From an uncultured Gammaproteobacteria bacterium (GTDB lineage: Bacteria; Patescibacteriota; Microgenomatia; UBA12405), in the NCBI GenBank assembly GCA_964503465.1, contig CAZCYZ010000001.1, forward strand, positions 195,731-259,730: DNA of 64,000 nucleotides, written 5' to 3'. Positions 1,148 to 39,009 of the stretch are shown one piece after another; the first letter of the stretch is position 1, and each line of letters begins with the position of its first letter. Position numbers and translations under genes: made by a program. The notes beneath the pieces were generated by a model. It worked only from the letters and a program-made list of their open reading frames with translations. It did not search any database and was not told the DNA's origin.

Positions 1148-1180
1148 AAATTTTAAATTATAAATTAGAAATTAATCAAA
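1148..1180. repeat. AT-rich repeat motif, copy immediately upstream of rpsG
   Basis: aaaattttaaattataaattagaaattaa; the 15-mer taaattagaaattaa also occurs at 11766 and 38587. Confidence 0.6.
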
Positions 1181-1666
1181 GTGTCACGCAAAGGACCAAG
1201 CAAAATTCGTCACCACCAGCCCGATCCGGTTTTTCAAAGTGCTCTAGTCACCCAACTTATCAATAAGGTTATGCTTCAGGGCAAAAAAGATGCCGCCCAA
1301 AAACAGGTTTATCAGACTCTCTCCCTTTTCAAAAAAGAGATTCCCAAAGATAGTGACCTTCTAACTACTCTTGAACAAGCCCTAGATAATATCAAGCCTC
1401 GAGTTGAGGTTCGGCCGCGAAGAATTGGCGGTGCGGTTTATCAGGTCCCTACTCCTGTTCGAGGACATCGTCAAACTTCTCTCGCCCTCCGATGGTTAAT
1501 TACTGCTTCTCGGGCCAAACCCAACAAACAGTTTCATACTTTTGCCGAAAAACTTAATTCCGAATTAGTTTTAGCTCTCAAAAACGAAGGATCTGCTATT
1601 TCCAAACGGCTCGAAGTCGAACGTATGGCCGAAGCCAACAAGGCTTTTGCGCATTTGAGATGGTAA
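1181..1666 (+). CDS. rpsG: 30S ribosomal protein S7 (GTG start)
   Basis: SRKGPSKIRHHQPDPVF...AFAHLRW is typical S7; GTG start. Confidence 0.95.
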   Translation: MSRKGPSKIRHHQPDPVFQSALVTQLINKVMLQGKKDAAQKQVYQTLSLFKKEIPKDSDLLTTLEQALDNIKPRVEVRPRRIGGAVYQVPTPVRGHRQTSLALRWLITASRAKPNKQFHTFAEKLNSELVLALKNEGSAISKRLEVERMAEANKAFAHLRW

Positions 1667-1672
1667 AGCCAA

Positions 1673-1716
1673 TCTTGCCGCAGTCCCGATCGTAGCATCG
1701 GGGCAAGGCTTTTGCG
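1673..1716 (+). terminator. Intrinsic terminator hairpin after rpsG
   Basis: cttgccgcagtcccgatcg-tagc-atcggggcaagg stem-loop followed by cttttg. Confidence 0.55.
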
Positions 1717-1749
1717 CATCTTCGTTGGTAATTGTGTTAACATTGTTTA

Positions 1750-3177
1750 ATGTCGTTTCTCTCCAAACGGACCTGTGTTGTTTGGCCGCACAAATCAACA
1801 GTTGACGTTTATCTTGACAATAAAGACACCAATCCAACCTCTTTTGAGCTTAACATTTGGCAATCTATATCTTCTGTCGATCTGGCCCCGTTGATTACTT
1901 TCTTTAAGGACAACCATGTTGCTTCAATATCAGTCTTGATTCCCGACGATGTTATTGTCACCAAGTCATTTGTCTATGATGCCAAAATCACCTCTGTCGA
2001 TACTGATGAAGTCGTCAAGCTGGCCGTTGGTACTACCAGCTTTGACATTACCGCCGAGTCAATTAATTTCAACCTAATCCCCCAGGGTGACAAGACTATC
2101 ATCCGCTCCGAATTCTCCGACCTACCAAAAATCACCAATCTCAAACAAAATATCGCCAATCTCGGTGTTAAGGTAGATATCTTTCAAACAGTATCAACTT
2201 CTGTGGCCAAAGCCATATCCACTTTTTATCAACAGGAATATTTCCTCCTTTACACCCTCAATCTCAACGAATCGTTTTTAATACTTTCGTCAGGCGAATC
2301 GGTCTATCTTACTAATTGTCTAAAAAAGTCAGCTCTTAATATTCAAAAACTTATCAACTACTCCAAACTGTATTTCAATCACACCGTCGAAAAAATATTC
2401 TTGCCCGCCAACAACCCTCCCGAGGTCAGTTCCACCTCAAAGCTTGATAAGACTTTTTATGATCCTGTCCAAATTGCCAACTCACTTCACCTTCCCAGCA
2501 CTCTCCCTTTACCAGTTTTGGGCTTGCTACTTGCTCCAAAAACTAGTAACATTACTATTAGTAAACCTATGACTGATAATCTCCCTCCTCCCACCATTAC
2601 CCCCCAAAACGACAGTCCCAAGAATATTCTTCCCATTATCGCCGTTTTCATTATTACTGCTGCCGTTGCTTCCATCGCCATTTGGTTTGTTCTTAATCGT
2701 AATCAACCAGATGGTTTGACCACTCCTTCGGGTCAGCAGGAACCAACCCCGATAATAACCGAGGCACCCACTGTTGCTCCCACTCCTACCTCTCCGCCGA
2801 TTGATAAAAAACTTAAGCTCCAAGTTCTCAATGCTACCGACATCAATGGCCAAGCCGCCACCCTTAAGGCTATTTTAATCGAACTCGGTTTCGAAAATGT
2901 TACTGTTGGTAATAGTAAAGAAAAAGTTACCGGTAACGAAATTCGTTTCAAACCCTCACTTTTGGCCGTCGAAACCTATTTCCAACCTCAACTTGTCACT
3001 CGTTTTCCAGCCAAGTACTCCTCAGCACTTAAAGAAACTTCCACCTACGATGTTGTTTTTGTCATTGGTAGTGATCTTTCCAAACCTACTGCTGCCACTA
3101 GTACTTCACCTACCGAATCAACTTCTACTCCGACCATTAAAACCTCTCCTTCTCCCTCTCCTACTCTCGCTCCATAG
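1750..3177 (+). CDS. Membrane protein with C-terminal LytR_C (cell-envelope) domain, Pro/Thr-rich linker and one TM helix; N-terminal cytoplasmic domain of unknown function
   Basis: TM segment ILPIIAVFIITAAVASIAIWFVL; C-terminal LKLQVLNATDINGQAATLKAILIELGFENVTVGN resembles the LytR_C domain; PT/ST-rich low-complexity stretches. Confidence 0.55.
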   Translation: MSFLSKRTCVVWPHKSTVDVYLDNKDTNPTSFELNIWQSISSVDLAPLITFFKDNHVASISVLIPDDVIVTKSFVYDAKITSVDTDEVVKLAVGTTSFDITAESINFNLIPQGDKTIIRSEFSDLPKITNLKQNIANLGVKVDIFQTVSTSVAKAISTFYQQEYFLLYTLNLNESFLILSSGESVYLTNCLKKSALNIQKLINYSKLYFNHTVEKIFLPANNPPEVSSTSKLDKTFYDPVQIANSLHLPSTLPLPVLGLLLAPKTSNITISKPMTDNLPPPTITPQNDSPKNILPIIAVFIITAAVASIAIWFVLNRNQPDGLTTPSGQQEPTPIITEAPTVAPTPTSPPIDKKLKLQVLNATDINGQAATLKAILIELGFENVTVGNSKEKVTGNEIRFKPSLLAVETYFQPQLVTRFPAKYSSALKETSTYDVVFVIGSDLSKPTAATSTSPTESTSTPTIKTSPSPSPTLAP

Positions 3178-3182
3178 TTTCC

Positions 3183-3890
3183 ATGAAAGGTATTATCCTA
3201 GCAGGAGGTAAAGCTACCCGTCTTCGCCCATTGACTTGGGTTATCAGTAAACAACTCCTTCCGGTTTACAATCAGCCGATGATTTACTATCCAATTCAAA
3301 CCCTGATTCGGGCCGGTATCACCGATATTCTTCTTATCATCGCCCCCGAAAATTCGGGCATGTTTCTTAATCTTTTAGGAACTGGTGAAGATTTTGGAGC
3401 TCATTTTAGTTATGCCGTTCAAAAAGAACCCCGTGGTTTAGCCGACGCTTTTATTATTGGAGCCGATTTTATTGACCACGATAATGTTACTATGATTTTG
3501 GGTGATAATATTTTCGATCCAAGTTTTATCGCCGACGTCAGAAAGTTCCATGGAGGAGCCCAAATTTATGCCAAAAAAGTACCCGATCCTCAACGTTATG
3601 GTGTCGTTGAGTTTGATCATAACCTAAAAGCAATTTCAATCGAAGAAAAACCTCAAAAACCAAAAAGTGACTATGCTGTTGTTGGTCTTTATACCTACGA
3701 CTCACGGGTTATTAATTATGCCAAAAACCTCCGCCCCTCAACTCGAAACGAAATCGAGATTACCGACCTAAACAACCTCTATCTTCAAAATAACGAGCTA
3801 CATGTTTCCATCATCGACAGTTATTGGCAAGACGCTGGTACTTTTGATAGTTTGCTTGAGGCTGGTAATTACATGTCTTCAATCAGATGA
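3183..3890 (+). CDS. rfbA: Glucose-1-phosphate thymidylyltransferase (short form)
   Basis: MKGIILAGGKATRLRPLT...QLLPVYNQPMIYYPI nucleotidyltransferase signature; first of a contiguous rfbABCD block. Confidence 0.85.
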   Translation: MKGIILAGGKATRLRPLTWVISKQLLPVYNQPMIYYPIQTLIRAGITDILLIIAPENSGMFLNLLGTGEDFGAHFSYAVQKEPRGLADAFIIGADFIDHDNVTMILGDNIFDPSFIADVRKFHGGAQIYAKKVPDPQRYGVVEFDHNLKAISIEEKPQKPKSDYAVVGLYTYDSRVINYAKNLRPSTRNEIEITDLNNLYLQNNELHVSIIDSYWQDAGTFDSLLEAGNYMSSIR

Positions 3891-4906
3891 AACTTCTAAT
3901 CACCGGGGGCCTTGGTTTTATTGGTAGCAATTTCATTCGTTATTGGCTCAAACATCATTCTGCCGACCAGGTTACAAACTTAGATTGCATCACCTATGCC
4001 GCCAATCCACATAGTCTCTTAGATCTTGAAGCCAACCCCAATTACAAATTCATTAAAGGTAATATTCTTGATCCCGAACTTTTGGACCGGATCATTCCAG
4101 GCACGGATTTGATTGTCCACTTTGCCGCTGAGTCTCATGTTGATCGTTCTATCGATGATCCATTTCTGTTTGTCAAAACCAATGTTTTAGGTACCTACAC
4201 CCTCCTTTCTGCCGCCAAAGAATACGGTAACATCCGTTTTCACCACATTTCCACTGACGAAGTTTTTGGCTCCATTATTCCCGGCATAGTCGACATTTTT
4301 AGTGAAAACACCCCCTACAATCCATCCTCTCCCTACTCTGCTTCCAAGGCCTCATCCGATCACTTTGTCAGGTCGTTTGGCAAAACGTTCTCCCTACCGA
4401 TTACCATTAGTAACTGCTCCAATAATTACGGTCCCTATCAACACCCCGAAAAAATGATTCCCAGAATGATTACCAATCTTATTGATGATAAAAAAATTCC
4501 GGTTTATGGTCGGGGTGATAACTATCGTGACTGGTTGTATGTTGACGATCACTGTTCGGCCATTGAAGCCATCATCGATCGAGGAACAGTCGGTCAAACA
4601 TATTGTATCGGTGGTCTTAAGGAAACCACTCGTAATATTGATCTCGTTAAGCAAACAATCAAACTTATGGGTAAAAGTGAAGACCAAATTGAATTCGTCC
4701 CTGATCGCCCAGCCCACGACAATTATGCCGTTGACTGGACCAAAATCCATCACGAGCTGGGTTGGCAGCCGCAAGAAACATTAACCACCGGCTTGCAGAA
4801 AACTATCGATTGGTATCTTTCCCATCAATCTTGGTGGCGAACTGCCAAAATCGAAGCCGAAAGTTTCTATAAAAAACTTAATAATTATCAAACTATTAAC
4901 CGATGA
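3887..4906 (+). CDS. rfbB: dTDP-glucose 4,6-dehydratase
   Basis: MKLLITGGLGFIGSNF... YxxxK SDR motif (PYSASKAS); 4-nt overlap with rfbA. Confidence 0.9.
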   Translation: MKLLITGGLGFIGSNFIRYWLKHHSADQVTNLDCITYAANPHSLLDLEANPNYKFIKGNILDPELLDRIIPGTDLIVHFAAESHVDRSIDDPFLFVKTNVLGTYTLLSAAKEYGNIRFHHISTDEVFGSIIPGIVDIFSENTPYNPSSPYSASKASSDHFVRSFGKTFSLPITISNCSNNYGPYQHPEKMIPRMITNLIDDKKIPVYGRGDNYRDWLYVDDHCSAIEAIIDRGTVGQTYCIGGLKETTRNIDLVKQTIKLMGKSEDQIEFVPDRPAHDNYAVDWTKIHHELGWQPQETLTTGLQKTIDWYLSHQSWWRTAKIEAESFYKKLNNYQTINR

Positions 4907-5460
4907 AATTTATCGAATCATCTCAAATCTCCGACCTTTTTTTAATCAAACCAGAAACTTTTGGTGATAATCGGGGTAATTTCTTTGAGTCATATAGCCA
5001 AAGACTTTTCCACGATGCCGGTATCAAGGCTGATTTTGTTCAAGACAATCAATCTTTTTCTTCCCAGCAAGGAACTCTGCGTGGACTTCATTTCCAAAAA
5101 GGCGAATTTGCCCAAGCCAAATTGGTTCGAGTGGTACAGGGTGCGATTTTTGACGTTGCTGTCGATCTTAGGCCGGAATCCTCCTCCTTTGGCCAGTGGG
5201 AGGGTTATGAACTTTCCGGCGAAACCAACAATATGTTGTTTATTCCTCGTGGTTTTGCTCATGGTTTTATTACTCTTACCCCAAACGTTTTCTTTATCTA
5301 CAAATGTGACAATTATTACCACAAGATCTCCGAAGGTGGAATTATTTGGAATGATCAAACTTTAGGAGTAAAATGGCCACTTACAATCGAACCGATATTG
5401 TCAAAGAAAGATAAATTACTTGCCACCTTCAAAGAATACAAATTAAATCCAGCATTCTAA
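4903..5460 (+). CDS. rfbC: dTDP-4-dehydrorhamnose 3,5-epimerase
   Basis: FGDNRGNFFESY...GTLRGLHFQ cupin epimerase motifs. Confidence 0.9.
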   Translation: MKFIESSQISDLFLIKPETFGDNRGNFFESYSQRLFHDAGIKADFVQDNQSFSSQQGTLRGLHFQKGEFAQAKLVRVVQGAIFDVAVDLRPESSSFGQWEGYELSGETNNMLFIPRGFAHGFITLTPNVFFIYKCDNYYHKISEGGIIWNDQTLGVKWPLTIEPILSKKDKLLATFKEYKLNPAF

Positions 5461-6335
5461 TGTCAATTCTTGGCACTGGTCTTTCGGGACTTGTTGGTTC
5501 ACGAATAGTTGAGCTAAATCCTCAATACGAATTTATCGACATTTCCCTCGAATCAGGCTTTGATATATTAAATCCGGGATCTTTAAATAAGGTTTTTCAA
5601 AATTTTACCGGTGACACTGTCATTCATCTGGCCGCTTTTACCGACACCAACTCTGCTTGGGAACAACGTGGTGACCACAACGGTCTTTGTTACCAACTTA
5701 ACGTTGTTGGTACCCAGAACATCCTGGATCTCTGTCAAAAATACAAAAAATACTTGATTTATTTTTCGACAGATTTTGTTTTTGATGGAACCAAAAAGGG
5801 AAGTTATCTTGAAACCGATACTCCCAACCCCATTGAGTGGTATGGCCACACCAAATGTCTTGCCGAAAAACTAATTCAACAATCAGGCCACCCTGCCACC
5901 ATTATCCGTATTGCCTATCCCTATCGTAGCCACTTTGATGCCAAGTCTGACATTGTTCGCAAAATTATCACCAAGTTCCAAAATGGTGAGAATTTGAAAA
6001 TGTTTACCGATCAAACTACCACTCCCACCTTTATCGATGACATTGCGCTCGGTTTACAGCATTTCTTTACTCACCAGCCAGTCGGTATTTATCATTTAGT
6101 CGGCTCCTCATCACAATCACCCTATGATCTTGCCGTTCTCATTGCCGATATTTTTCACCTAAACAAAAATCAACTTCAGCCGAGTTCACTTCGTGATTAT
6201 TTGGTTGCAAATCCTCCCCCCGCTCGGCCGTGGCAAATAAATCTTAGCCTTTCGAATCACAAAGTTTATACTTTGGGGATAAAAACGCGAACTATCACTG
6301 ATGGCTTAATGGAACTCAAAAAACAGTTGGGTTGA
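5460..6335 (+). CDS. rfbD: dTDP-4-dehydrorhamnose reductase
   Basis: MSILGTGLSGLVGSRI... RmlD-like SDR; completes the dTDP-L-rhamnose pathway. Confidence 0.85.
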   Translation: MSILGTGLSGLVGSRIVELNPQYEFIDISLESGFDILNPGSLNKVFQNFTGDTVIHLAAFTDTNSAWEQRGDHNGLCYQLNVVGTQNILDLCQKYKKYLIYFSTDFVFDGTKKGSYLETDTPNPIEWYGHTKCLAEKLIQQSGHPATIIRIAYPYRSHFDAKSDIVRKIITKFQNGENLKMFTDQTTTPTFIDDIALGLQHFFTHQPVGIYHLVGSSSQSPYDLAVLIADIFHLNKNQLQPSSLRDYLVANPPPARPWQINLSLSNHKVYTLGIKTRTITDGLMELKKQLG

Positions 6336-6840
6336 CATTTTTTCTCTTTTCTAGCCTCACGATCTCATCCATCGACATGGTCTTAAACTTTACATTAGCC
6401 CGGTCTGGGAAATATATAGCAACTTCTGGACCAATTTCTCTATCAATTCCGTTAATATTCCATTCTAAATCGGGATACCTACCAACAAAACTATGTAAAT
6501 CCATATTTATAACGAATTCAGCGTGTTCAAGTCCTTCGGAGAACTTGTCACCTTCAGCTGGGGCTAAAACTTCAAAGTACTTTATTTCACTACTCTGATA
6601 CTTTAATGGTCGATCCAGCAAATAAATATCCACCGGCCGGTTGCGGATGATATTGTGAGAAATCCGTTTACCATATCCACCCAAAAGCCTACTTATTGAG
6701 TCGTAAGATTTATTCGAGATCGCCCTATAAGCAATATGGTCAAACTTGCATCCTTTAATCTCAATTCCCACACTATCAATATTCTTAAAAACTCTGGCCA
6801 AAAAATTCGTATAATCACCAATTATTTCCTCAACCCTCAT
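6316..6840 (-). CDS. Hypothetical protein, possibly VOC/glyoxalase-like fold
   Basis: 174-aa ORF with FDHIAYR motif; no confident family assignment. Confidence 0.4.
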   Translation of the reverse strand: MRVEEIIGDYTNFLARVFKNIDSVGIEIKGCKFDHIAYRAISNKSYDSISRLLGGYGKRISHNIIRNRPVDIYLLDRPLKYQSSEIKYFEVLAPAEGDKFSEGLEHAEFVINMDLHSFVGRYPDLEWNINGIDREIGPEVAIYFPDRANVKFKTMSMDEIVRLEKRKNVNPTVF

Positions 6841-7969
6841 TGTTAATTATATCAGCCACTATCTCTCCCTCCCTAACCGCAAAGTTCATTCCTCTGTCCT
6901 CAGGATATATTCGAGCAAAGTTCACCTGATAAGTTTTTTTATTAAGCTTCATTTCTGGTACCTTATATCCAGTACTTACTACATGTTGGGCATACTTAAA
7001 GCTAAAAATGGACTTCTGTTCAACTTTCTCAATACCAAAACTTGGAAAAATCTTTTTAAGATAATCAAACCACTCCTTCTCGTCTACTTTTGTTTTTCCA
7101 TATGCCCCCAGATAATAAACATTGTCTCCGCCATAATTTTCCTTGTCTATAAAATTAGTGTGCTGAATAAAGGCCAAAAAAGGGGATTGGGTATCGTTTA
7201 TATTGTGCCAATAATACTTTGACAGGTTCTGTTTACTGGTAAAAACCAGACACACTGCTGGCAGGTAGTCTATTCTCTTAATTGGAGCGCTGGTTATTAT
7301 CTTGTCAAAGTTTTTTTCCTCTTTAAGCTCTGTCCCCAACTTTATTGCTCCACCGTTCGCTTTAATTCTTTTTGCCAGTTCATCGGTTACCTGTTGGAAT
7401 CCTCCCATTAAGTAACCCAAACCCCCGCTTCCTCTAGTATGAATCCTGGCCCACATCCAGGCCATAGAGACATCTCTGTATCTATCATTAAATTTGCCCC
7501 GTAACAGTGGTTCCCATACCACCTTGTAAGCTCTTCTCCCGCACCACTTTTCCATCCACTCTGCCGCTGTTACTTTTTCAAATTTCTTCCAATTGCGCTC
7601 TTTTTCCAGATAAATTTTTACTAGCCCTAACCTTAACTTGTCCATTAGCCCCAGTGGTTTAAATCGGAACAAGTCCACTGCCCCAGCAAACGGATAAACC
7701 TGACTATCATAATAAATTGCCGTCACATCTTTTCGCCAAACTAATTTGTCAATCAGCCCCAATTCTTTTACCAGAGCTATATAGTCTTTGTCTTTTCTAA
7801 AAATATGATGATATGTTTTTTCTAGATTTGTTCCATTTATTTCAAATCCTCCTGCCAGTCCCCCTAGTTCTTTTTCCTTTTCAAAAACCGTTATCTTGTG
7901 TCCCTCTTGGCTCAACCTATACCCAGCTACTAATCCCGTTAGCCCCCCTCCCACAATTGCTATTTTCAT
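6830..7969 (-). CDS. NAD(P)/FAD-dependent oxidoreductase (amine-oxidase / protoporphyrinogen-oxidase-like Rossmann N-terminus)
   Basis: MKIAIVGGGLTGLVAGYRL...VFEKEKELGG dinucleotide-binding motif; 379 aa. Confidence 0.65.
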   Translation of the reverse strand: MKIAIVGGGLTGLVAGYRLSQEGHKITVFEKEKELGGLAGGFEINGTNLEKTYHHIFRKDKDYIALVKELGLIDKLVWRKDVTAIYYDSQVYPFAGAVDLFRFKPLGLMDKLRLGLVKIYLEKERNWKKFEKVTAAEWMEKWCGRRAYKVVWEPLLRGKFNDRYRDVSMAWMWARIHTRGSGGLGYLMGGFQQVTDELAKRIKANGGAIKLGTELKEEKNFDKIITSAPIKRIDYLPAVCLVFTSKQNLSKYYWHNINDTQSPFLAFIQHTNFIDKENYGGDNVYYLGAYGKTKVDEKEWFDYLKKIFPSFGIEKVEQKSIFSFKYAQHVVSTGYKVPEMKLNKKTYQVNFARIYPEDRGMNFAVREGEIVADIINNEG

Positions 7970-8008
7970 AATTGGATCAATTCTACCAAAGTTGTGCTAT
8001 AAATCACC

Positions 8009-8206: not shown

Positions 8207-8275
8207 TGTGTTATCATCATTCACCCGACCCCGCAGCCGCGGGGCCACAGTTTTTATTTTGTATACTAACTAACT

Positions 8276-10387
8276 ATGGCCGATGCCATCAAACTTTCTA
8301 AAAATCGCGACGTTCCCATGGACAAGGTTCGCAATATTGGTATCATTGCCCACATTGACGGCGGTAAAACCACTACTACTGAACGACTTTTATTTTATAC
8401 TGGAAAAATCCACAAAATAGGTTCAGTTGACGAAGGTACTACTACTACTGATAGTATGGTCCAGGAGCGGGAGCGGGGGATTACCATTCAATCAGCCTGC
8501 ATTACTACTTTTTGGAAAGATTTTCGTATTAATATTATTGATACCCCCGGTCATGTCGATTTTACTGCCGAAGTCGAGCGCTCGCTTCGTGTTCTTGACG
8601 GCGCCATCATGATCTTTGATGGTAATGCTGGTGTTCAGGCGCAGTCGGAAACTGTTTGGCGTCAAGCCGACAAATATCATGTTCCTCGAATTGCTTTTGT
8701 CAACAAAATGGACAAAATTGGTGCCTCATTCCAGAAAACGCTTGAGTCAATCACAGCTAAGCTTCGTGCTCCAATCGTTCCAATGGTTCTTCCTGTCGGT
8801 GAGGAACACGCTCACATTGGTGTCATCGATCTTATGGAAATGAAAATGATTGTTTACGACAAAGACGAGGAGGGGATGGAATTTACTATCAAAGATGTTA
8901 CCCCAGAATATTTAGACTCTGCCACCAAAGCTCGTCATCTTATGGTCGAAAAAATCGCTGGTGAGGACGAAGTGCTGATGGAGAAATTTTTAAATGATCA
9001 GGAAATTACTGTTCCGGAACTTAAAGTTGCTCTTCGTAAAGCCTGTATTGATCGAAAATTATTTCCGGTTTTTTGTGGTGCTGCTTGGCGCAACAAAGGT
9101 ATTCATCCAATTCTTGACGCTATTATTGACTATCTTCCTTCCCCGCTTGATTTGCCCCCAATTGAGGGTTTTGATGTTAATACCCAGGAAAAGATTGCTC
9201 GTAAACCTCTCAAGAATGAACCATTTTCTGGTATGTTGTTCAAGGTTCAATCCGACCCTCATGTTGGTACTCTTTCTTACGTCCGTGTCTATTCCGGAAC
9301 CCTCAAAGCTGGCTCCGAAGTTTACAACGCTACTCGCCAAAAGAGTGAACGAATTGGTCGTTTGTTATTGATGCATGCCGACAAACGTGAAGGGATTGAA
9401 GAAGGTTATGCTGGTGAAATAATTGCCTGTATTGGCCTTAAGGAATCCTACACTGGTGACACTCTCTGTGATCGAACCCAGCCAATTTCTTTGTCTCCTA
9501 TTCAATTTCCTGACCCGGTTATTTCTCTTAGTATCGAACCGGTAACCACCGACGATCAGGAAAAAATGGGCCAGGCTCTTAATCGTCTCGCTATCGAAGA
9601 TCCAACTTTTAAGGTTTCCTACAACCACGAAACCGGCCAAAGCATCATTGCCGGTATGGGTGAACTTTACTTGGAAATTGTCGTCGATCGTCTCAACCGC
9701 GAGTTCGGTGTCAAGGTCAAAACTGGTGCTCCCCAAGTTGCTTATCGGGAAACCATTTCTATTAATGCCGAGGGTGAGGGTAAGTACATTCACCAATCCG
9801 GTGGTCATGGTCAGTATGGTCACTGTAAGATCCGCATCGAACCAAAAAACCGCGGCGAGGGTGTTGAATTTGTCAATGCCGTCAAGGGTGGAGCAATTCC
9901 TAGTAATTTTATTCCTGCCATTGAAAAAGGTATTCGCGAAAGCCTTCAAAAAGGTATTATTGCCGGTTACCCTGCTACTGACCTCAAAGTTACTGTTTAT
10001 GACGGTACTTATCACGAGGTTGATTCGTCCGAAATGGCCTTTAAATTGGCCGGTTCCTATGCTATCAAGGATGCCTTCGAAGCCGCCAAGCCATTGGTTT
10101 TAGAGCCTATCATGAAGCTTGAGGTTGCCTGTCCGTCAGATTTCTTAGGTACAGTCATGGGCGATCTTTCCTCTCGACGTGGCCAAATTACTGGCACTAC
10201 TGAAAGTTTTGGTTTCACTACTATTCTGGCCCTTATCCCTCTTGAGGCCATTCGTGGTTATGCCACCATCATTCGTTCTCTTACTCAGGGAAGGGGATCT
10301 TTCTATATGGAACCAAGCCATTATGATCCAGTCCCCGCCAACGTCCAGGCCCAACTTGTTCTAGCAAAAAATGGAGGCAAGCAGTAA
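8276..10387 (+). CDS. fusA: Elongation factor G
   Basis: AHIDGGKTTTTERLL... GTPase motifs and full-length EF-G architecture (703 aa). Confidence 0.97.
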   Translation: MADAIKLSKNRDVPMDKVRNIGIIAHIDGGKTTTTERLLFYTGKIHKIGSVDEGTTTTDSMVQERERGITIQSACITTFWKDFRINIIDTPGHVDFTAEVERSLRVLDGAIMIFDGNAGVQAQSETVWRQADKYHVPRIAFVNKMDKIGASFQKTLESITAKLRAPIVPMVLPVGEEHAHIGVIDLMEMKMIVYDKDEEGMEFTIKDVTPEYLDSATKARHLMVEKIAGEDEVLMEKFLNDQEITVPELKVALRKACIDRKLFPVFCGAAWRNKGIHPILDAIIDYLPSPLDLPPIEGFDVNTQEKIARKPLKNEPFSGMLFKVQSDPHVGTLSYVRVYSGTLKAGSEVYNATRQKSERIGRLLLMHADKREGIEEGYAGEIIACIGLKESYTGDTLCDRTQPISLSPIQFPDPVISLSIEPVTTDDQEKMGQALNRLAIEDPTFKVSYNHETGQSIIAGMGELYLEIVVDRLNREFGVKVKTGAPQVAYRETISINAEGEGKYIHQSGGHGQYGHCKIRIEPKNRGEGVEFVNAVKGGAIPSNFIPAIEKGIRESLQKGIIAGYPATDLKVTVYDGTYHEVDSSEMAFKLAGSYAIKDAFEAAKPLVLEPIMKLEVACPSDFLGTVMGDLSSRRGQITGTTESFGFTTILALIPLEAIRGYATIIRSLTQGRGSFYMEPSHYDPVPANVQAQLVLAKNGGKQ

Positions 10388-10400
10388 GATCAATTTCGCC

Positions 10401-10429
10401 TTGCATTGAAGGTAAACTGCTGATACAAT
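10401..10429 (+). promoter_or_regulatory. Sigma70-like promoter upstream of tuf (TTGCAT-17nt-TACAAT)
   Basis: ttgcat at 10401-10406 and tacaat at 10424-10429 with a 17-nt spacer. Confidence 0.5.
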
Positions 10430-10503
10430 CTTAAAGCGTTTTTTGTTACACTTTAATTGTTACTTTTTCTCCCGCAAGTCCGGGACAAAACATCTAAAAA
10501 ACT

Positions 10504-11679
10504 ATGGCAGACAACAAGTTTGTAAGAAACAAACCGCATCTTAACGTTGGTACTATTGGTCATGTTGACCATGGAAAAACTACCTTAACAGCGGCAATTA
10601 CTAAGATTCAAGGTAATCCAAAATCATATGCCGACATCGCCAAGGGCGGTACCGTTCGTGATGCCAGCAAAATCGTTACCATCGCTATTTCTCACGTTGA
10701 ATACGAAACCGACAAGCGACACTATGCTCACATTGACTGCCCTGGACATGCCGACTATGTCAAAAACATGATTACCGGTGCGGCTCAAATGGATGGTGCT
10801 ATCCTTGTCGTCTCTGCTCCTGATGGTCCCATGCCTCAGACCCGGGAACACGTTCTTCTGGCCAACCAAGTTAATGTCCCCAATCTAGTGGTTTACCTTA
10901 ACAAAGTTGATCTGGTCACTGATCCGGAATTTTTGGATCTAGTCGAAATGGAAATCCGTGAACTTCTCAAAAAATACCAGTATCCCGGTGACGAAATTCC
11001 TATCATTCGAGGTTCAGCTCTCAAAGCTCTTGAAGGTGATCCTGCCGGTGTCGAGTCCATCAAAAAGCTTCTAGAGGCTCTCGATTCATACATTCCCGAA
11101 CCCAAACGCGAACTTGATCAACCGTTCTTGATGCCAATTGAAGACGTTTTTTCAATTAAAGGTCGTGGCACCGTTGCCACCGGTAGAATTGAACGCGGTG
11201 TCATTAAAGTCAACGAGGAAGTCGAGATTGTCGGTCTCAACGCTACCAAAAAGTGTGTTGTTACCGGTGTCGAAATGTTCCACAAACAACTTGACCAAGG
11301 TCAAGCCGGGGACAATGTTGGTATCCTTCTTCGCGGTATTGAAAAAGACGACATTGAACGTGGTCAGGTCTTATCAAAACCTGGCACTATTACTCCTCAC
11401 ACCGAATTTAAGGCTGAAATTTACCTTCTCAAAAAAGAAGAAGGTGGTCGACACACCCCAGTTTTCACTGGTTATCGTCCTCAAGTCTTTATTCGTACCA
11501 CCGATGTCACCGGCGAGGTTACTCTGCCAAGTGGTGTCGAAATGGTCATGCCAGGGGATAATGCCACTGTTTCAGTTAAATTAATTAAACCAGTAGCTAT
11601 GGAAAAAGGACAACGTTTTGCTATCCGTGAGGGTGGTTTAACTGTTGGTGCCGGTGCCATAGTTGAGATCATCAAATAA
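10504..11679 (+). CDS. tuf: Elongation factor Tu
   Basis: [13 protein letters not shown]...[26 protein letters not shown]. Confidence 0.97.
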
Positions 11680-11695
11680 ACCAAGGAATCAATAC

Positions 11696-11728
11696 CCCGT
11701 TCCGAAAGCTTTCGGAACGGGGTTTTCA
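11696..11728 (+). terminator. Intrinsic terminator after tuf
   Basis: ccccgttccgaaagctttcggaacgggg perfect hairpin followed by tttt. Confidence 0.8.
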
Positions 11729-11745
11729 AAAAAAGCACCTTAACT

Positions 11746-11784
11746 TATTTTAAAAATCAAACTTATAAATTAGAAATTAAATTA
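11746..11784. repeat. AT-rich repeat motif, copy immediately upstream of rpsJ
   Basis: tattttaaaaatcaaacttataaattagaaattaaatt. Confidence 0.6.
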
Positions 11785-11789
11785 ACGGT

Positions 11790-17923: not shown

Positions 17924-17960
17924 TGAAATTAAAATCTATTTATTCAACTCACCGAGCTAA

Positions 17961-18000
17961 CTCCCTGCCCTGTCAAGGGAAGGGTGGGGGAAGGGTTTTG
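17961..18000. repeat. G-rich hairpin element, copy 1 (CCCTGCC..TCAAGGGAAGGG + GGGGGAAGGGTTTTG)
   Basis: Shares the CAAGGGA(G/A)GGG arm and the G-tract+TTTTG tail with copies at 23128, 39714, 40081 and 54887. Confidence 0.6.
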
Positions 18001-18008
18001 TAACTCTT

Positions 18009-23092: not shown

Positions 23093-23127
23093 TAGTTTCA
23101 AATATGACTAGCAATTACAAATTAAAA

Positions 23128-23182
23128 TCCTCCCTTTCCTCAAGGGGAGGTGTCCCGACAAACGTCGGGACGGAGGGGTTTT
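23128..23182. repeat. G-rich hairpin element, copy 2 (double hairpin CCTCCC..GGGGAGG and TCCCGAC..GTCGGGA, then GGAGGGGTTTT)
   Basis: Same CAAGGGGAGG arm and GGGGTTTT tail as the other copies; lies between the PNPOx-like gene and infA. Confidence 0.55.
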
Positions 23183-23187
23183 AATCA

Positions 23188-24397: not shown

Positions 24398-24412
24398 TAT
24401 AACTTTCAATTT

Positions 24413-24441
24413 TATATTTTATTTAGAAATTAAAAATTAAA
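24413..24441. repeat. AT-rich repeat motif, copy immediately upstream of rpsD
   Basis: atattttatttagaaattaaaaattaaa; its 16-mer ttagaaattaaaaatt also occurs at 38591. Confidence 0.55.
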
Positions 24442-24445
24442 CCAA

Positions 24446-25084
24446 GTGTCCCGAATAACCGTCAACACCAAATGTCGTTTGTGTAAAGCCGCAGGTAAAA
24501 AGCTCTATCTAAAGGGGGCCCGCTGTTTGTCATCCAAATGTCCTATCGACAAAAAAGGTGCTGTACCTCCAGGGATGCATGGTATTAAGGGTCACCACCG
24601 TAAATCCACTGACTATAGTTTCCAGCTCAAGGCCAAGCAGGAGGCCAAGCGTCTTTATGGCATCAACGAAACCCAATTCAAGAATCTTTATCTTAAAGCC
24701 AAGAAACTTAAGGGACTTACCGGTGATAATTTCTTAAGCCTTCTTGAAAGCCGTCTTGATAACGTTGTTTACCAGTCCGGGTTAGCCCTGTCCCGATCCC
24801 ACGCCCGCCAACTTATTTCTCACCGTCACTTTCGTGTCAACGACAAAGTACTTAACATTTCCTCTTACCTTCTTAAGCCTGGTGACAAAGTTACTCTCGA
24901 CCAAAACACTTTTGACCAATTGGGCGACAGTCTCCGTTTCCAGGACAAGGACTTCAAGGTGGGCAACTGGCTCGAACTCGACAAGTCTCACCACGGAGTT
25001 ATTTTCCGTTCTCGTCCCTCTCGTGCCGACGAGATCGGTCAAGGTTTAGATATCAATTTAATTATTGAGTACTATAGTAGATAG
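24446..25084 (+). CDS. rpsD: 30S ribosomal protein S4 (GTG start)
   Basis: CRLCKAAG...S4 domain; GTG start. Confidence 0.9.
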   Translation: MSRITVNTKCRLCKAAGKKLYLKGARCLSSKCPIDKKGAVPPGMHGIKGHHRKSTDYSFQLKAKQEAKRLYGINETQFKNLYLKAKKLKGLTGDNFLSLLESRLDNVVYQSGLALSRSHARQLISHRHFRVNDKVLNISSYLLKPGDKVTLDQNTFDQLGDSLRFQDKDFKVGNWLELDKSHHGVIFRSRPSRADEIGQGLDINLIIEYYSR

Positions 25085-32620: not shown

Positions 32621-32680
32621 TCCTTGCAAAACTAATAAATTTGGCGTAAATTCAAGAGAATTAAAAATTTAAAAAAAATA

Positions 32681-32953: not shown

Positions 32954-32970
32954 TTAATTTTCTCCATCCA

Positions 32971-33004
32971 AATCCCCCTTGAACTATCTAAAGGGGGATT
33001 TTTG
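32971..33004 (+). terminator. Intrinsic terminator after hup
   Basis: aatccccctt-gaactatcta-aagggggatt hairpin followed by tttt. Confidence 0.8.
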
Positions 33005-33018
33005 GTTTAGAATTGTCC

Positions 33019-33342
33019 ATGACAGTCCTTATTTGGCCAATTGTTAGCATTGTCATTAACGCCTTACTTTCACTGTATCGACACCGGGGCTTCCAAATTT
33101 TTCCAGTTTTTGCCACTTATGATTGTTTCTATTACGATGGGTTCATTCTTTGGTCACTTCGACTACTTCTCGTTTCATCAATTGTCTACCTATCATTTTG
33201 GGTTTTTCGGGAAAAGGTCAGACCCAAAATTATTCTTTATTTTTTAATTATTTTTTGTTTTATATTATTGGTATATTTATATTCCGTTCATATTGAACAA
33301 ACACCCGGTCCCAACGGATCATCCTGGTGTCAATATATATGA
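33019..33342 (+). CDS. Hypothetical small membrane protein (doubtful)
   Basis: Three hydrophobic segments; the 3' half is extremely AT-rich and may be promoter DNA rather than coding. Confidence 0.25.
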   Translation: MTVLIWPIVSIVINALLSLYRHRGFQIFPVFATYDCFYYDGFILWSLRLLLVSSIVYLSFWVFREKVRPKIILYFLIIFCFILLVYLYSVHIEQTPGPNGSSWCQYI

Positions 33343-34298: not shown

Positions 34299-35085
34299 GT
34301 ACTACATCATCGCCAAAAACACTCTCCAGGTCTATTTTGCCTACCGGCTCAATTTTATCTTTTGGCGGCTTCAGGTAATCATTTCTTTCCTAATTTTTTA
34401 TTATCTTTGGTTTGCTGTTGCCCAAGGCAAACAAACAGTAGGGGATTATACTATTCCCCAAATTTATTCATATTTTGTTATTGGTTATATTATTCGAGCC
34501 TTAGTTTTTTCCACTCGGACCGGTGATATTGGTGGTGATATTCAGTCCGGTACCCTCTCGTCCCTGCTTCTCAGGCCTATAGGCATTATTAAGTTCTATT
34601 TTAGCCGTGACCTTATCGATAAGCTTTTTAATTTAGTTTTTATGACCATTGAGTTTGGACTTATTGTTCTTGTTCTTCGGCCCCAGTTAGTTATTCCCAG
34701 CCCCCTCGATCTCCTCTACTTCACCATTTCCCTTATTATCGCTATTGTCATTTTCTTTTTTTACAGTCTAATAATTTCTTTTCTAACTTTTTGGACCGAT
34801 CAGGCCTGGTCGTCTCGTTTTCTTTTTGGAGTTGTTTTTATTAACCTTTTTTCGGGTCAATATATTCCCCTCGATCTTCTTCCTCGACCTTTGTTCCAGA
34901 TTCTAAACTACACCCCATTTCCCTACCTTTATTATTATCCTGTTCGTTTTTGGTTGGGCAAAGACATTGGTCTAGAACCGCTTCTGACACTTTTTATATC
35001 CCTTCTTATCTTGGGACTATTTTACTTTTCTGCTAATCTCCTCTGGATTCGAGGAAAACTTCGCTATCAGGCTTATGGCAATTAA
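34291..35085 (+). CDS. ABC-2 family transporter permease (subunit 1)
   Basis: About 6 TM helices; start ATG overlaps the ATPase stop (ATGCTTAAG); ABC-2/COG4587-like. Confidence 0.7.
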   Translation: MLKYYIIAKNTLQVYFAYRLNFIFWRLQVIISFLIFYYLWFAVAQGKQTVGDYTIPQIYSYFVIGYIIRALVFSTRTGDIGGDIQSGTLSSLLLRPIGIIKFYFSRDLIDKLFNLVFMTIEFGLIVLVLRPQLVIPSPLDLLYFTISLIIAIVIFFFYSLIISFLTFWTDQAWSSRFLFGVVFINLFSGQYIPLDLLPRPLFQILNYTPFPYLYYYPVRFWLGKDIGLEPLLTLFISLLILGLFYFSANLLWIRGKLRYQAYGN

Positions 35086-35866
35086 AAACGTTTTTACCAC
35101 TTGGATTATTATCGCCAAGAATAATCTCCAAAACCAGCTTCTGACAGCCTCATCATCGTTTTTTTTTATTATTGGTAAAATTGTTACCTTTATCTTCACC
35201 CTACTTACCATCTTTGCCATTTTTAGTACCACCCAAACAATTGTTGGTTTTTCTCTCCATCAGGCTATTATTGTCACTGTTGTCTACAATCTCATCGACT
35301 CATTTACTCAATTTTTATTTCGTTCCATCTATTCTTTTCGTCCGGTATTACTCCGGGGGGAGTTTGACCTTGATTTACTCAAGCCATTACCTTCATTTTT
35401 TCGCCCACTACTCTCTGGCCCGGACTTCTTTGATCTCCCCTCCATCATTATTCAGGTGGTTAGTCTAATTTTTTTCCTTATTAAATTTAATATTAATCCA
35501 AGTCTTGTTGACATTGCCGCCTTTCTTTCTCTCTTTTTAATTAGTGTCATTGTTGCTTTTTCACTACACTTATTAATGGCCGCCTTTTCCATCCTCACCA
35601 CCGAAATTGACAATATTGCCTGGATATACCGTTCTTTTGTCAGGGCAGGAATTGTTCCCACTGATGTTTATACCGGTAGTTTTAGGTTAATTCTTGACTA
35701 CATTATCCCTGTCACCATTCTCGTGACTGTTCCCGCTAAGGCTATCCTTGGTCTTCTTGATTTCCACTTTATTACCTACGTCGTCATTTTTTCGGCAATT
35801 TTGCTTACCATCTCTCTTTGGTTCTGGCGCTTCACTCTTCGCCACTATACCAGTACTGGCAGCTAA
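35075..35866 (+). CDS. ABC-2 family transporter permease (subunit 2)
   Basis: Second, distinct 6-TM permease overlapping the previous gene by 11 nt. Confidence 0.7.
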   Translation: MAIKNVFTTWIIIAKNNLQNQLLTASSSFFFIIGKIVTFIFTLLTIFAIFSTTQTIVGFSLHQAIIVTVVYNLIDSFTQFLFRSIYSFRPVLLRGEFDLDLLKPLPSFFRPLLSGPDFFDLPSIIIQVVSLIFFLIKFNINPSLVDIAAFLSLFLISVIVAFSLHLLMAAFSILTTEIDNIAWIYRSFVRAGIVPTDVYTGSFRLILDYIIPVTILVTVPAKAILGLLDFHFITYVVIFSAILLTISLWFWRFTLRHYTSTGS

Positions 35867-35886
35867 GTTGAGATATAATATAGGAT

Positions 35887-37626
35887 ATGCAATCGGTAAA
35901 GGTTGTTCTAATCAACTTAACCAAGCCAAATACAGCCAAGGGTTCAGGCCTGGAAGCCTTAGGAATTGAAACTGTCGCAGGACACATTTTGGGGAAATTT
36001 GGCCCTATGATCAAGGTAAGACTGTTCGATGCCCAGCTTGATTCAATATCAAAAATAATATCTAAAGTACGCAATTTTAACCCGGATCTTGTGGGTATCT
36101 CGGTTAATATCGGAGCAATTTCTGCTGCCGGACTGATTACAAAAAAGTTAACTAAATATCAGAACCCAAAAATTGTTTTTGGGGCTCGGGGGGCTGAATT
36201 CTATCCAGATTATTTACCCTGCCCCATAAGAACAGAGTGTTTTATAGCTTCTGGGTGGGGGGAAATAGCTTTGGAAGATATCGTATCCTATATGATTGGG
36301 AAAAAAGACTTAAAGCAGATAAGAAACATCCTAAAATATAGCTCCCCAGATAGCAATCTCTGGCAATCTACACCATGGTCAAAACAAGCAATTTTAGATT
36401 TACGAAAATCATTTCCGCCCTATCGGGCCAACCTAGACAGATATCGAAAACATGAAATGGTGACCATGGAGACTCAAAGAGGTTGCCCATATGCAAAATG
36501 TTATTTTTGTCCTCGGCCACACTCCTTAAAAGAGATACATATTTTTCCGATTGAAAAGAAGTTGAGAGAGTTGGTGTATCTATCCAAAAAGAAAGTTCGA
36601 AGCATTCCCATCATAGACGAAGAGTTTTTTCTTGGAAAAAATGGAATTAGCAAAAAAATAAAGTTGATAGAAGGGATCATTAAATATAAAAACAGAGGAC
36701 AAATTCATCCAGACCTAAACTTTTGTGTTGACATGAGAGCTGATACTATCTGTACGGCTATTGATGAGTTTGGCGGACTTGGTAATTCTAGTAACCCTCT
36801 TAATTTACTCAAAAGTGCCGGGGTGAAATTTATCTTTGTTGGCATAGAGAGTCTTTCTCAAGGAATGCTTGATCATCTCAACAAGGGGACAACTGTTGAA
36901 CAGAATGTAAGAGCTGTAACAGCTTTAAGAGAAGTTGGAATAAAATTTCAAGCAGGTAGCCTCAGTCTGGCTCCATTGATGAGGTTTAATTGGCTCAAGG
37001 AATCAGTAATTAGAATCCGACAACAAAACTTAGCTGAGCTTGCCGATCCTTCCTTACCTTTGATTCTATTTTCCACCTCAGAATATTACAAAAGGTATTT
37101 CGTTGATCATAAAGACAATCAAGAACTTCTTGACCTAACAAATAAAAACTTACCTGCCCTCGACACCTTATCTGGAATTCCCTATAAATACAAAGATCCT
37201 AAAGTTCAGATTATTGCTGGGGTTCACGATTTCCATGAAAAAGAGATGTATTTGCTAATGAAGAAACTAAGAAGTATCAATGCAAAGTTAGTTTATGGTG
37301 GAGAGGAAAAATCCGATATATATATGGAAATTTGGAAGTGGTTGAGTTATGGGCGACTGGAAATTATTCTTTGGGGTATGGAGGAGTTATGTGGTGAGTT
37401 ATCTAAAACTGACTGGAGGAAAACTATCTCCATAAAGCATCGTCTGATTTTTAAAGAGATGCAAAGGAGAAAACAGTATATGGCAACATCGCTCTTGAGG
37501 TTTATTCTACGTTCAAAACAGTCACTAAATCATAATCAAAAAAGATTGGTTGAGGTAAGTGATCTACTTAAGATAACCAAGGAGGTAACCAGCTCTACCC
37601 AATCGGTATATCGATTCGAAAGTTAA
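35887..37626 (+). CDS. B12-binding-domain-containing radical SAM protein (class B-like), function unknown
   Basis: N-terminal cobalamin-binding-like domain (VVLINLTKPN...DLVGISV), Fe-S motif RGCPYAKCYFC (CX4CX2C), Elp3-like FIFVGIESLSQGMLDHLNKG motif, long C-terminal extension without SPASM cysteines; AGA/ATA-rich codon usage unlike neighbouring genes. Confidence 0.75.
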   Translation: MQSVKVVLINLTKPNTAKGSGLEALGIETVAGHILGKFGPMIKVRLFDAQLDSISKIISKVRNFNPDLVGISVNIGAISAAGLITKKLTKYQNPKIVFGARGAEFYPDYLPCPIRTECFIASGWGEIALEDIVSYMIGKKDLKQIRNILKYSSPDSNLWQSTPWSKQAILDLRKSFPPYRANLDRYRKHEMVTMETQRGCPYAKCYFCPRPHSLKEIHIFPIEKKLRELVYLSKKKVRSIPIIDEEFFLGKNGISKKIKLIEGIIKYKNRGQIHPDLNFCVDMRADTICTAIDEFGGLGNSSNPLNLLKSAGVKFIFVGIESLSQGMLDHLNKGTTVEQNVRAVTALREVGIKFQAGSLSLAPLMRFNWLKESVIRIRQQNLAELADPSLPLILFSTSEYYKRYFVDHKDNQELLDLTNKNLPALDTLSGIPYKYKDPKVQIIAGVHDFHEKEMYLLMKKLRSINAKLVYGGEEKSDIYMEIWKWLSYGRLEIILWGMEELCGELSKTDWRKTISIKHRLIFKEMQRRKQYMATSLLRFILRSKQSLNHNQKRLVEVSDLLKITKEVTSSTQSVYRFES

Positions 37627-37731
37627 AACAGAGGGACAATTCTCCTTCGACAATCATCAGAATAAAACTAGTGATGTTTTTCTACCACCTGCCTCTTTAC
37701 AGTCTACATAGTTAATATATACAATAATCCC

Positions 37732-37923
37732 ATGTCTAGTCCAGACCAAAAACCAACAACTCACGCATCATCACCTTCACATCCACAGCAAAGACTGATT
37801 GAGAGTCTTTTACACCCAGAATCTAGCTGCTACTTTCCGGCTCATCCACCATCGGATAGAACCAAACGTATTCTCGAGGACATGGAAAGGAGACTGAACA
37901 GTCAAAGTCAAATTAAACCGTAA
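37732..37923 (+). CDS. Small hypothetical protein (63 aa, Ser/Pro/His-rich), co-located with the rSAM gene
   Basis: Shares the rSAM gene's AGA/AGG codon bias; no SD sequence; no homology recognised. Confidence 0.3.
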   Translation: MSSPDQKPTTHASSPSHPQQRLIESLLHPESSCYFPAHPPSDRTKRILEDMERRLNSQSQIKP

Positions 37924-37935
37924 TATAATACCCTG

Positions 37936-39009
37936 ATGTCCAAACTTTCGATTGGGATTGTCGGTTTGCCAAACGTCGGCAAATCGACTCTATTTAATGC
38001 TCTCCTTGGCCGAGCAGTCGCCAATGCCAGTAACTACCCTTTTTGCACTATTGATCCCAACGTTGGTGTGGTCGAGGTTCCTGACGACAAATTGCCGATT
38101 CTGGCCGACATTGTTAAAACCACCAAAATAATTCCCGCCATTGTCGAGTTTGTTGACATCGCCGGTTTGGTCAAAGGAGCTTCCCAAGGTGAAGGCTTGG
38201 GTAATAAATTCTTAACCAACATCCGCGACTGTGACGCTATCTGTCATGTTGTTAGAAGTTTTTCCGACCCAAATGTTGTTCGTGAAGGCAGCACCGACCC
38301 TCAAGGTGATTTCGAGGTCATTTCTGCTGAGCTAATTATCAAGGATTTAGAAACCATCGATCGCTACCTTGATACCAACAAAAATAATGCTCTCGAAAAA
38401 AACAGTAAAAAGTTTTTATTAGCCACCAAGTTAAAAACCGAACTAGAGAAGGGGATTCTCGCTGTCAATCTGGGTCTGTCTCAAGAAGAAAAACTTCTTC
38501 TGAAAGAGTTTTTCCTTCTTACCGCTAAACCTTATTTTATTGTTTTCAATGTTGATGAAAACTCATACAAGAATGTTGAAAATTTTAAATTAGAAATTAA
38601 AAATTGCCAAGCTGTTATTCCAGTATGTGCCAAAATAGAATTTGAATTATCCGAAATACCACCCGAGGATCGGCAAAGTTATTTGAAGGAATTAGGAATG
38701 GACAAATCAGGTCTCGAACGCGTTATTCAACAAGCTTACAACACTCTCGGTCTTCAATCGTTTTATACCGCTGGGGTCAAAGAAGTTCGGGCTTGGACCA
38801 TTGCCAAAGGGAGCACTGCACCCCAAGCCGCCGGAGTTATTCACACTGATTTTGAGCGTGGATTTATTATGGCCGAAGTTGTTTCTTATCCCGATTTTGT
38901 CGCCAATCAAGGTTTCGAAGGGGCCAAAGTCAAGGGGTTTTTGCGTCACGAAGGCAAAGATTATATAATGTCCCCCGACGACATCGTCGAGTTTAGGTTT
39001 AATGTTTAA
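37936..39009 (+). CDS. ychF: Ribosome-binding ATPase YchF (Obg-family GTPase)
   Basis: [17 protein letters not shown]1 motif; TGS C-terminal domain. Confidence 0.9.
38580..38606. repeat. AT-rich repeat motif (AAAATTTTAAATTAGAAATTAAAAATT), copy inside ychF
   Basis: Identical 15-mer TAAATTAGAAATTAA also at 1161-1175 and 11766-11780; 16-mer TTAGAAATTAAAAATT also at 24423-24438. Confidence 0.6.

Follow-up and report, generated by a model that had tools for sequence, protein, structure and literature searches.

A 64,000-nt stretch of contig CAZCYZ010000001.1 (the window; all positions count from its first letter) carries a short AT-rich motif located directly upstream of three ribosomal protein (r-protein) genes, rpsG, rpsJ and rpsD. 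The intergenic copies of this motif are tentatively interpreted as start signals, or expression spacers, that are independent of Shine-Dalgarno (SD) sequences and act in cis for the downstream gene; we put the probability of this interpretation at about 0.5. Under this hypothesis, the spacers would have been built from slipped 7-nt units, (T/G/A)AAATTA, inserted between r-protein genes that are tightly coupled in related genomes. Upstream of rpsJ, the hexamer TAAATT located 6 nt before the ATG would be the most likely -10 box and would yield a leaderless or near-leaderless mRNA. In the case of rpsG and rpsD, for which no terminator is found before the spacer, the motif would provide an unstructured, AU-rich region for ribosomes to land on or scan along a polycistronic mRNA, and these spacers may also fire as internal promoters, with (G/A)AAATT 7 nt before the GTG. 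For these two genes, an AU-rich intercistronic initiation region is the more economical reading, and an internal promoter is possible. The feature is real but of low complexity; most likely, it represents a cis-acting start signal of an ordinary kind within an unusual genome of the Candidate Phyla Radiation (CPR) that is poor in SD sites and prone to leaderless mRNAs.

The 15-mer TAAATTAGAAATTAA occurs exactly three times in the window, each time on the plus strand (1161-1175, 11766-11780 and 38586-38600), and the 16-mer TTAGAAATTAAAAATT is found on the same strand at 24423-24438 and 38590-38605. A further string, AAAATTTTAAATTA, is common to positions 1147 (the rpsG copy) and 38579 (a look-alike within ychF). 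The sequence-only reading of this stretch had reported these three words and assigned all four genes correctly, but placed the third 15-mer at 38587-38601, the second 16-mer at 38591-38606, and the shared prefix at 1148 and 38580. Its statement that the copies end 5-15 nt before the starts of rpsG, rpsJ and rpsD agrees with the distances found, namely 5 nt for rpsG (GTG 1181), 9 nt for rpsJ (ATG 11790) and 7 nt for rpsD (GTG 24446). No dispersed repeat in the window is longer than the 18-mer TTATAAATTAGAAATTAA, which the rpsG copy (at 1158) and the rpsJ copy (at 11763) have in common. The copies represent micro-arrays with a period of 7, in which the units, (T/G/A)AAATTA, differ in the first base only; Tandem Repeats Finder (TRF) detects such arrays at 1148-1174, 24423-24441 and 38579-38605, and no other period-7 arrays in the window. 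All three intergenic copies terminate with AAATTAA followed, after 4-5 nt, by the start codon, an arrangement that puts (G/T/A)AAATT 6-7 nt before the start.

The rpsL-rpsG spacer (1144-1180, plus strand) consists of 37 nt with 95% A+T that separate the rpsL stop codon (1141-1143) from the GTG-initiated rpsG (1181); this entire gap is occupied by copy 1, with the array at 1148-1174 (AAATTAT x3.9), the 15-mer at 1161-1175, and GAAATT at 1168-1173, 7 nt before the GTG. The 48-nt rpsK-rpsD spacer (24398-24445, plus strand) contains the period-7 array at 24423-24441, which includes TTAGAAATTAAAAATT (24423-24438), and AAAATT at 24433-24438, again 7 nt before the GTG at 24446. A possible fourth, weak member is the degenerate, motif-like TGAAATTAAAATCTATTTATTC on the plus strand at 17924-17945, directly after the rplE stop codon and followed by a G+C-rich hairpin and then by rpsN. 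Among the [AGT]AAATTAA octamers located in plus-strand intergenic regions of the window, 6 of 6 map to r-protein junctions, that is, those preceding rpsG, rpsJ (two) and rpsD (two), and rplE-rpsN, which adds some non-randomness to the distribution. Copies 1 and 2 are not assembly artefacts because an independent Logan assembly of SRR8925802 (loci L214 and L081) has them in identical form; the two assemblies, the second of which possibly derives from the same or a sister sample, show no length difference at these copies. The rpsD start codon is GTG only in the window, whereas all six relatives compared use ATG (L082 9264, L083 9259, L084 14945, L086 15366, L088 14935 and L216 8845); rpsG of the window is GTG-initiated as well, and the heptad motif precedes both of these GTG starts.

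The spacer upstream of rpsJ has a distinct organization. The tuf-rpsJ gap in the window spans 110 nt and holds copy 2; it contains a terminator-like hairpin 3' of tuf (11694-11726, plus strand; 13-bp stem, dG -24.1 kcal/mol, z -5.2) followed by UUUU. This hairpin separates tuf from rpsJ, and relatives have 4-5 nt in its place. Because the terminator-like hairpin precedes the AT-rich spacer (11727-11789, plus strand; TTATAAATTAGAAATTAA at 11763-11780), a promoter for the S10 operon must be located within 11727-11789. Candidate -10 boxes in this spacer are TATAAA (11764-11769) and TAAATT (11766-11771 and 11778-11783), and the last of these is 6 nt before the rpsJ ATG (11790), as at other first genes in this genome. 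The same succession of terminator, -10 box and start codon is seen at fusA and at the gene that starts at 52114, as well as in the related locus L212. Thus, of the proposal that the motif could be a promoter or upstream promoter (UP) element, the promoter part survives, firmly for rpsJ only, whereas a UP element is unlikely because the motif is located within 25 nt of the start codon.

The spacers lack predicted RNA structure. The three motif RNAs have predicted structure z-scores of +0.9, +1.3 and -0.5; the minimum free energies of the spacers range from 0 to -1.7 kcal/mol, their A+T content is about 86-95%, and they lack a GGAG-type site. According to these predictions, the initiation regions combine the absence of an SD, low G+C content and the lack of stable structure around the start codon. 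In the window, SD-like sites are generally rare (3 of 28 and 2 of 38 genes, approximately 5 of 66), and in relatives there are 2-5 such sites per 25-34 genes. Conversely, in 15 of the 28 window genes preceded by a gap of 25 nt or more, a TAnnnT hexamer ends 5-10 nt before the start codon, with 16 hexamers in this interval compared to about 4 expected from other offsets (e.g., 8257-8275, 35867-35886, 37915-37935, 52095-52113 and, on the minus strand, 55974-55996). In published in-silico work, a TAnnnT box near the start codon marks leaderless genes (PMC3160421, PMC6028130), so that, by this -10-box signature, leaderless mRNAs appear to be widespread in this genome; our literature search found no report of such a signature for CPR/Patescibacteria. 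Leaderless candidates include GTG-initiated genes, as illustrated by TACAAT located 5 nt before the GTG at 50339. A generic scan for sigma-70 promoters and terminators performed no better than on shuffled sequences.

The region upstream of the HU gene (32640-32680, plus strand) illustrates how such sequences might be used. It contains TTGCAA and TAAATT separated by 17 nt, followed by an all-A/U leader of about 22 nt that includes AATTAAAAAT; both the -35/-10 pair and the A/U-only leader with AATTAAAAAT are conserved between the window and L212. In this clade, it thus seems probable that such AU-only sequences are part of transcripts and are located before start codons, a prerequisite of SD-independent initiation on unstructured leaders of the kind proposed for Bacteroidetes (PMC3155529). 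The window, L082 and L083 retain the GGAG SD site of rpoA; because rpoA still uses an SD, a functional anti-SD is probable. Pairing of the motif with an altered anti-SD was also considered and set aside, given that rpoA retains GGAG and tuf has AAGGAGAA in L084, L086 and L088. In these three relatives, AAGGAGAA is located 4-5 nt upstream of the tuf start (L084 1702-2055, L086 1834-2013, L088 1803-2069); in the window (10388-10503), the upstream tuf promoter TGATACAAT is kept and the SD before tuf is absent.

Comparison with relatives indicates that the intergenic copies are lineage-specific. The best matches of S10, L6 and YchF are from Candidatus Shapirobacteria (CPR/Patescibacteria), and the loci compared include more distant relatives (L084, L086, L088 and L001, the latter found by an S10 scan of genome contigs) and closer ones (L082, L083, L215 and L216). 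The comparison covers two junctions, tuf-rpsJ and rpsK-rpsD. The tuf-rpsJ junction spans 4 nt in L084, L086 and L088 and about 5 nt in L001, as compared in these four more distant loci; the rpsK-rpsD junction spans 9-10 nt in L084, L086 and L088 and contains AT-rich repeat spacers of 39 nt in L082, 98 nt in L083 and 119 nt in L216, with unrelated sequences. Accordingly, the conservation upstream of the same genes that was suggested as a check is not found: the motif is absent from the tuf-rpsJ and rpsK-rpsD junctions of the relatives (L001, L082-L088 and L216), and in 104 kb of related loci it is almost absent and never located 5' of an r-protein gene.

What the closer relatives do contain is a class of repeat spacers. 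In L083, tandem-repeat spacers precede rpsC, rplP, rplN, rpsN ((ACTAACT) x8.9), rplF, an unnamed open reading frame (ORF), adk, rpsD ((AAAATTG) x3.9) and rplQ (repeat spacers at 1-30, 681-736, 2886-2947, 3510-3569, 6674-6709, 7323-7352, 9171-9243 and 10821-10887). L215 has such spacers before rplP (TTAAATTTTAAATTAATTTTTT abutting the ATG, with AAATTTTAAATTA shared with copy 1) and rplF (413-441 and 3137-3167); L216, before rplF, rpsD and rplQ (1848-1887, 8726-8844 and 10406-10458); and L082, a single one, before rpsD (9225-9263). Many of these spacers belong to the ACTTTATAAAC family and end with TATAAACTAAA and 0-3 nt before the ATG. Their periods range from 7 to 10 nt, with units such as ACTTTATAAAC, TATAACTT, ACTAACT and AAAATTG, and they adjoin start codons at varying r-protein junctions, where the more distant relatives have junctions of 1-10 nt. 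Taken together, the repeat spacers are 86% A+T, with G as the rarest base (C:G = 102:40), and mostly lack predicted structure. The motif in the window appears to be one genome's version of a subclade-wide, fast-changing class of repeat spacers, rich in A and T and directly adjoining start codons, and these spacers are a more interesting lead than the motif itself. A bolder extrapolation, which we consider rather unlikely, is that this Shapirobacteria subclade (the window, L215, L082, L083 and L216) possesses a dynamic family of AT-rich tandem-repeat 'start cassettes', with AAATTA, ACTTTATAAAC or ACTAACT units, that would have been repeatedly inserted between formerly coupled r-protein genes, always next to the downstream start codon. 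If active as promoters or ribosome entry sites, such cassettes would mean that repeats rewire the expression of r-protein operons in a CPR lineage poor in SD sites and prone to leaderless mRNAs, and repeat number could be a tunable parameter.

Several observations weigh against the interpretation of the copies as start signals. The register of the 15-mer core, TTAGAAATTAA, relative to the start codon differs among the three genes (5, 9 and 12 nt). Among 18 repeat spacers from the window and relatives, TAnnnT is found 5-8 nt from the start at a frequency of 0.08 compared to 0.07 per position elsewhere; AT-richness alone explains the -10-like hexamers of the repeat spacers, and chance words of this kind are abundant in AT-rich DNA, so that positional support for promoters is limited to ordinary first genes and rpsJ. 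The rpsG and rpsD hexamers, GAAATT and AAAATT, have A-11 and T-7 and lack T-12, and inspection by eye reveals no good -35 box at the copies. Furthermore, given that the motif is missing at the same junctions of relatives, any function would not be sequence-specific over evolutionary time. A stronger version of the promoter hypothesis holds that all three copies are internal sigma-70-type promoters whose -10 box, nAAATT, is located 6-7 nt from the start codon, and that they give leaderless mRNAs and would split the rpoBC-rpsL-rpsG, tuf-S10 and rpsM-rpsK-rpsD operons into separate transcripts. The like geometry at the three genes (GAAATT+7, TAAATT+6 and AAAATT+7) and the prevalence of leaderless architecture in the window and in L212, along with the GTG-initiated candidate at 50339, are compatible with this possibility. 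So is the metagenome locus L105: the 18-mer and AAAATT precede a tRNA-Ala gene there, 6 nt from its mature 5' end, and cannot serve as a translation signal at such a site. However, L105 is one anecdotal case among upwards of 120 matches, mostly due to chance and from unrelated organisms, and the lack of positional enrichment in the spacers, of T at -12 in rpsG and rpsD, and of a -35 box makes promoters at all three genes a doubtful proposition.

The significance of the shared words depends on the null model. Whole-window dinucleotide shuffles reproduced the matches in 0 of 100 cases, but this null is blind to local composition. A stricter null was derived from 167 AT-rich tracts of the window (4.5 kb) by within-tract shuffling or order-2 Markov resampling, with 500 simulations. 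A 15-mer was present in at least three tracts in 0 to 7 of the 500 simulations, and an 18-mer common to two tracts appeared in 3 to 35, such that the triple 15-mer and the rpsG-rpsJ 18-mer are moderately significant. A 16-mer common to two tracts was obtained in 75-195 of 500 simulations, so that the match between rpsD and ychF is within chance expectation, and an 11-mer was found in at least four tracts in 119-433 of 500; shared words of 13 and of 15 nt, which bracket the length of the rpsG-ychF 14-mer, were frequent as well. Because the heptad units differ only in the first base, identical 15-mers are far less improbable here than in random sequence.

A serious rival is neutral, microsatellite-like expansion, whereby the junction sequence, a TAA stop codon with a few A/T bases, would have been amplified by replication slippage into 7-10 nt units that are merely tolerated, the shared 15-18-mers reflecting low complexity. 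The period-7 arrays detected by TRF at the copies, the variety of units, lengths and junctions among the arrays of relatives, the lack of conservation of the motif, the unremarkable status of most matches under the AT-tract null, and the lack of positional enrichment of -10 boxes in the spacers are all expected under this scenario. Nevertheless, we regard neutral expansion as improbable on balance: the spacers persist although they interrupt junctions of essential, highly expressed and seemingly translationally coupled genes; of the 5 subclade genomes, the window included, 4 have such a spacer before rpsD; and the rpsJ spacer is accompanied by a terminator, so that a promoter is required there. 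In addition, the arrays always adjoin the start codon, on the coding strand, the intergenic octamers are all at r-protein junctions, and the triple 15-mer is reproduced in only 0-7 of 500 simulations. Since essential genes stay expressed behind such spacers in relatives, the spacers must be at least compatible with initiation.

The copy within ychF does not belong to the element. The look-alike at 38579-38605 (plus strand) encodes (E)NFKLEIKN in frame, as the sequence-only reading had recognized, and represents conserved coding sequence. In 120 Shapirobacteria YchF proteins, N-[FW]-K-L-x-I-x-N is conserved at this position, and the protein encoded in the window has no insertion; in L212, where YchF is 81% identical, KLEIKN is encoded by AAATTAGAAATTAAAAATTG, with 20 nt identical to the window. 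Of the reading frames of the motif, a single one is open, and it gives (Y)KLEIK. Because a conserved KLEIKN peptide is found there and is specified by the same DNA in L212, the ychF copy is a coincidence, that is, ancestral coding DNA that spells heptads by chance. Homology of the rpsG and ychF copies, suggested by a 7-nt difference between them, was accordingly dropped, the ychF copy being conserved coding DNA. A metagenome scan for the 18-mer yields at least 120 single-copy matches; among the matches listed, 52 are in long ORFs that encode YKLEI(K/N), and no close relative of the window is present. The 18-mer thus is a word common in AT-rich DNA worldwide, and the scan gives no information on its frequency in a whole genome.

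The coding origin of the ychF look-alike also bears on the proposal that the motif is a tiny mobile or copy-pasted element, akin to 'mobile promoters' or a miniature inverted-repeat transposable element (MITE). Identity over 18 nt at two unrelated junctions and the recurrence of ACTTTATAAAC-unit families at different junctions in four relatives could be cited for it. However, the rpsG and rpsJ copies are only about 73% identical over 41 nt (by hand count on the alignment), and putative mobile promoters are defined by at least 50 nt at 80% identity or higher (PMC3488235). Exact identity does not exceed 18 nt, inspection of the intergenic copies by eye reveals neither inverted termini nor target duplications, the ychF copy represents coding DNA of ancestral origin, and the motif is rare in 104 kb of relatives. 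The suggestion of a mobile repeat is thus not supported, and we consider it very unlikely.

Even less probable is a role of the motif as an operator for autogenous r-protein feedback or as a site for a common regulator of r-protein operons. The location of the motif 5' of rpsG, rpsJ and rpsD makes this idea attractive because the regions upstream of these genes are classic control points in Escherichia coli, and the intergenic octamers, too, are all at r-protein junctions. However, the feedback operators of S7, S4 and L4 are three different rRNA-mimicking RNA structures, and a model based on them predicts three distinct structures rather than a single shared linear AU motif. The motif RNA is unstructured, no Rfam leader is detected at the copies either at the gathering score or at E<=1, and the motif is absent from the tuf-rpsJ and rpsK-rpsD junctions of relatives; on these grounds the feedback operator that had been proposed for these leaders is not supported.

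Almost nothing is known experimentally about transcription and translation initiation in CPR/Patescibacteria. The window suggests a genome that largely dispenses with SD sequences and appears to depend instead on -10 boxes adjoining start codons, tight gene coupling, and repeat-built, AU-rich spacers at a few r-protein genes. If these spacers are functional, operons of essential genes can be re-partitioned fast by slippage-generated sequence; if they are not, the case serves as a warning that, in AT-rich DNA of low complexity, exact 15-18-mers provide weak evidence of a motif.

Several other features of the window deserve mention. The last codons of rpsG (KAFAHLRW*) are present twice, at 1639-1666 and 1704-1731, 65 nt apart, with different synonymous codons (TTG AGA vs CTT CGT) and a hairpin in between; judging from this arrangement, the duplication looks like a relic 3' end left by insertion or replacement just 5' of an inserted gene cluster. 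The adjacent non-ribosomal block of about 6 kb (1750-7969) between rpsG and fusA breaks the usual gene order of the str operon and contains a LytR_C-like ORF, an NTP-transferase (rfbA-like) gene, likely additional deoxythymidine diphosphate (dTDP)-sugar genes, and two minus-strand ORFs, as assigned from N-terminal sequence motifs and Pfam calls on L214. G+C-rich hairpin modules of the CCTCCCTTTCCTCAAGGGGAGG type are located at differing r-protein junctions (17946-18008 and 23125-23187 in the window, L216 401-492 and L082 7926-8021), namely rplE-rpsN and 5' of infA in the window and rplN-rplX in L216, and TGAAATTAAAnTCTATTTATT precedes the rplE-rpsN and L216 copies; these modules may represent a dispersed terminator or regulatory element. 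The RNase P RNA (41126-41389, minus strand) scores best with the archaeal model RF00373 (121.5 bits, full length) in an otherwise bacterial (CPR) genome. Every 2-kb bin of 1-64000 except one has a negative GC skew (cumulative -4.8), and because nearly all genes are on the plus strand, the coding strand is C-rich rather than G-rich. Finally, an ORF includes an 18/36-nt tandem repeat at 57908-58012 (CTACCAAAACCCCCACCG-like, about 4 copies), so that part of the coding sequence is repetitive and rich in C and A.

Among known systems, the promoters of leaderless genes resemble the arrangement in the window in the TAAATT located 6 nt before the ATG of rpsJ, in the boxes of 15 of 28 first genes, and in the rarity of SD sites. 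They differ in that the rpsG and rpsD hexamers of the window lack T-12, these genes are inside operons, and the box is not enriched across the spacers; the published group C leaderless genomes are mainly those of Actinobacteria and Deinococcus-Thermus (PMC3160421, PMC6028130). The 5' untranslated regions (UTRs) of the Bacteroidetes type and the AU-rich, S1-binding enhancers of E. coli share with the spacers the low G+C content, the lack of structure, and the lack of an SD directly 5' of the start; in Bacteroidetes, start selection via an unstructured 5' UTR bound by S1 has been proposed (PMC3155529). In the window, by contrast, the region is a tandem heptad array between formerly coupled cistrons, is found at few genes only, and coexists with an SD at rpoA. 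Putative mobile promoters (Matus-Garcia et al. 2012) likewise involve similar sequences 5' of non-homologous genes in one genome, but the stretch shared in the window, 18 nt for exact identity or 41 nt at about 73%, falls far short of their defining length. Autogenous r-protein operators (the S7 site in the rpsL-rpsG spacer, the S4 alpha-operon pseudoknot and the L4 S10 leader) are found in the same three gene neighbourhoods, although the motif, a single linear sequence compared to three rRNA mimics, has no structure, Rfam match or conservation. Contingency simple-sequence repeats are associated with surface or virulence genes rather than with housekeeping r-protein genes, and no length variation was observed between the two assemblies, in which copies 1 and 2 are identical; the likeness lies in the short-period tandem units next to a gene start, with unit number and sequence varying between related genomes.

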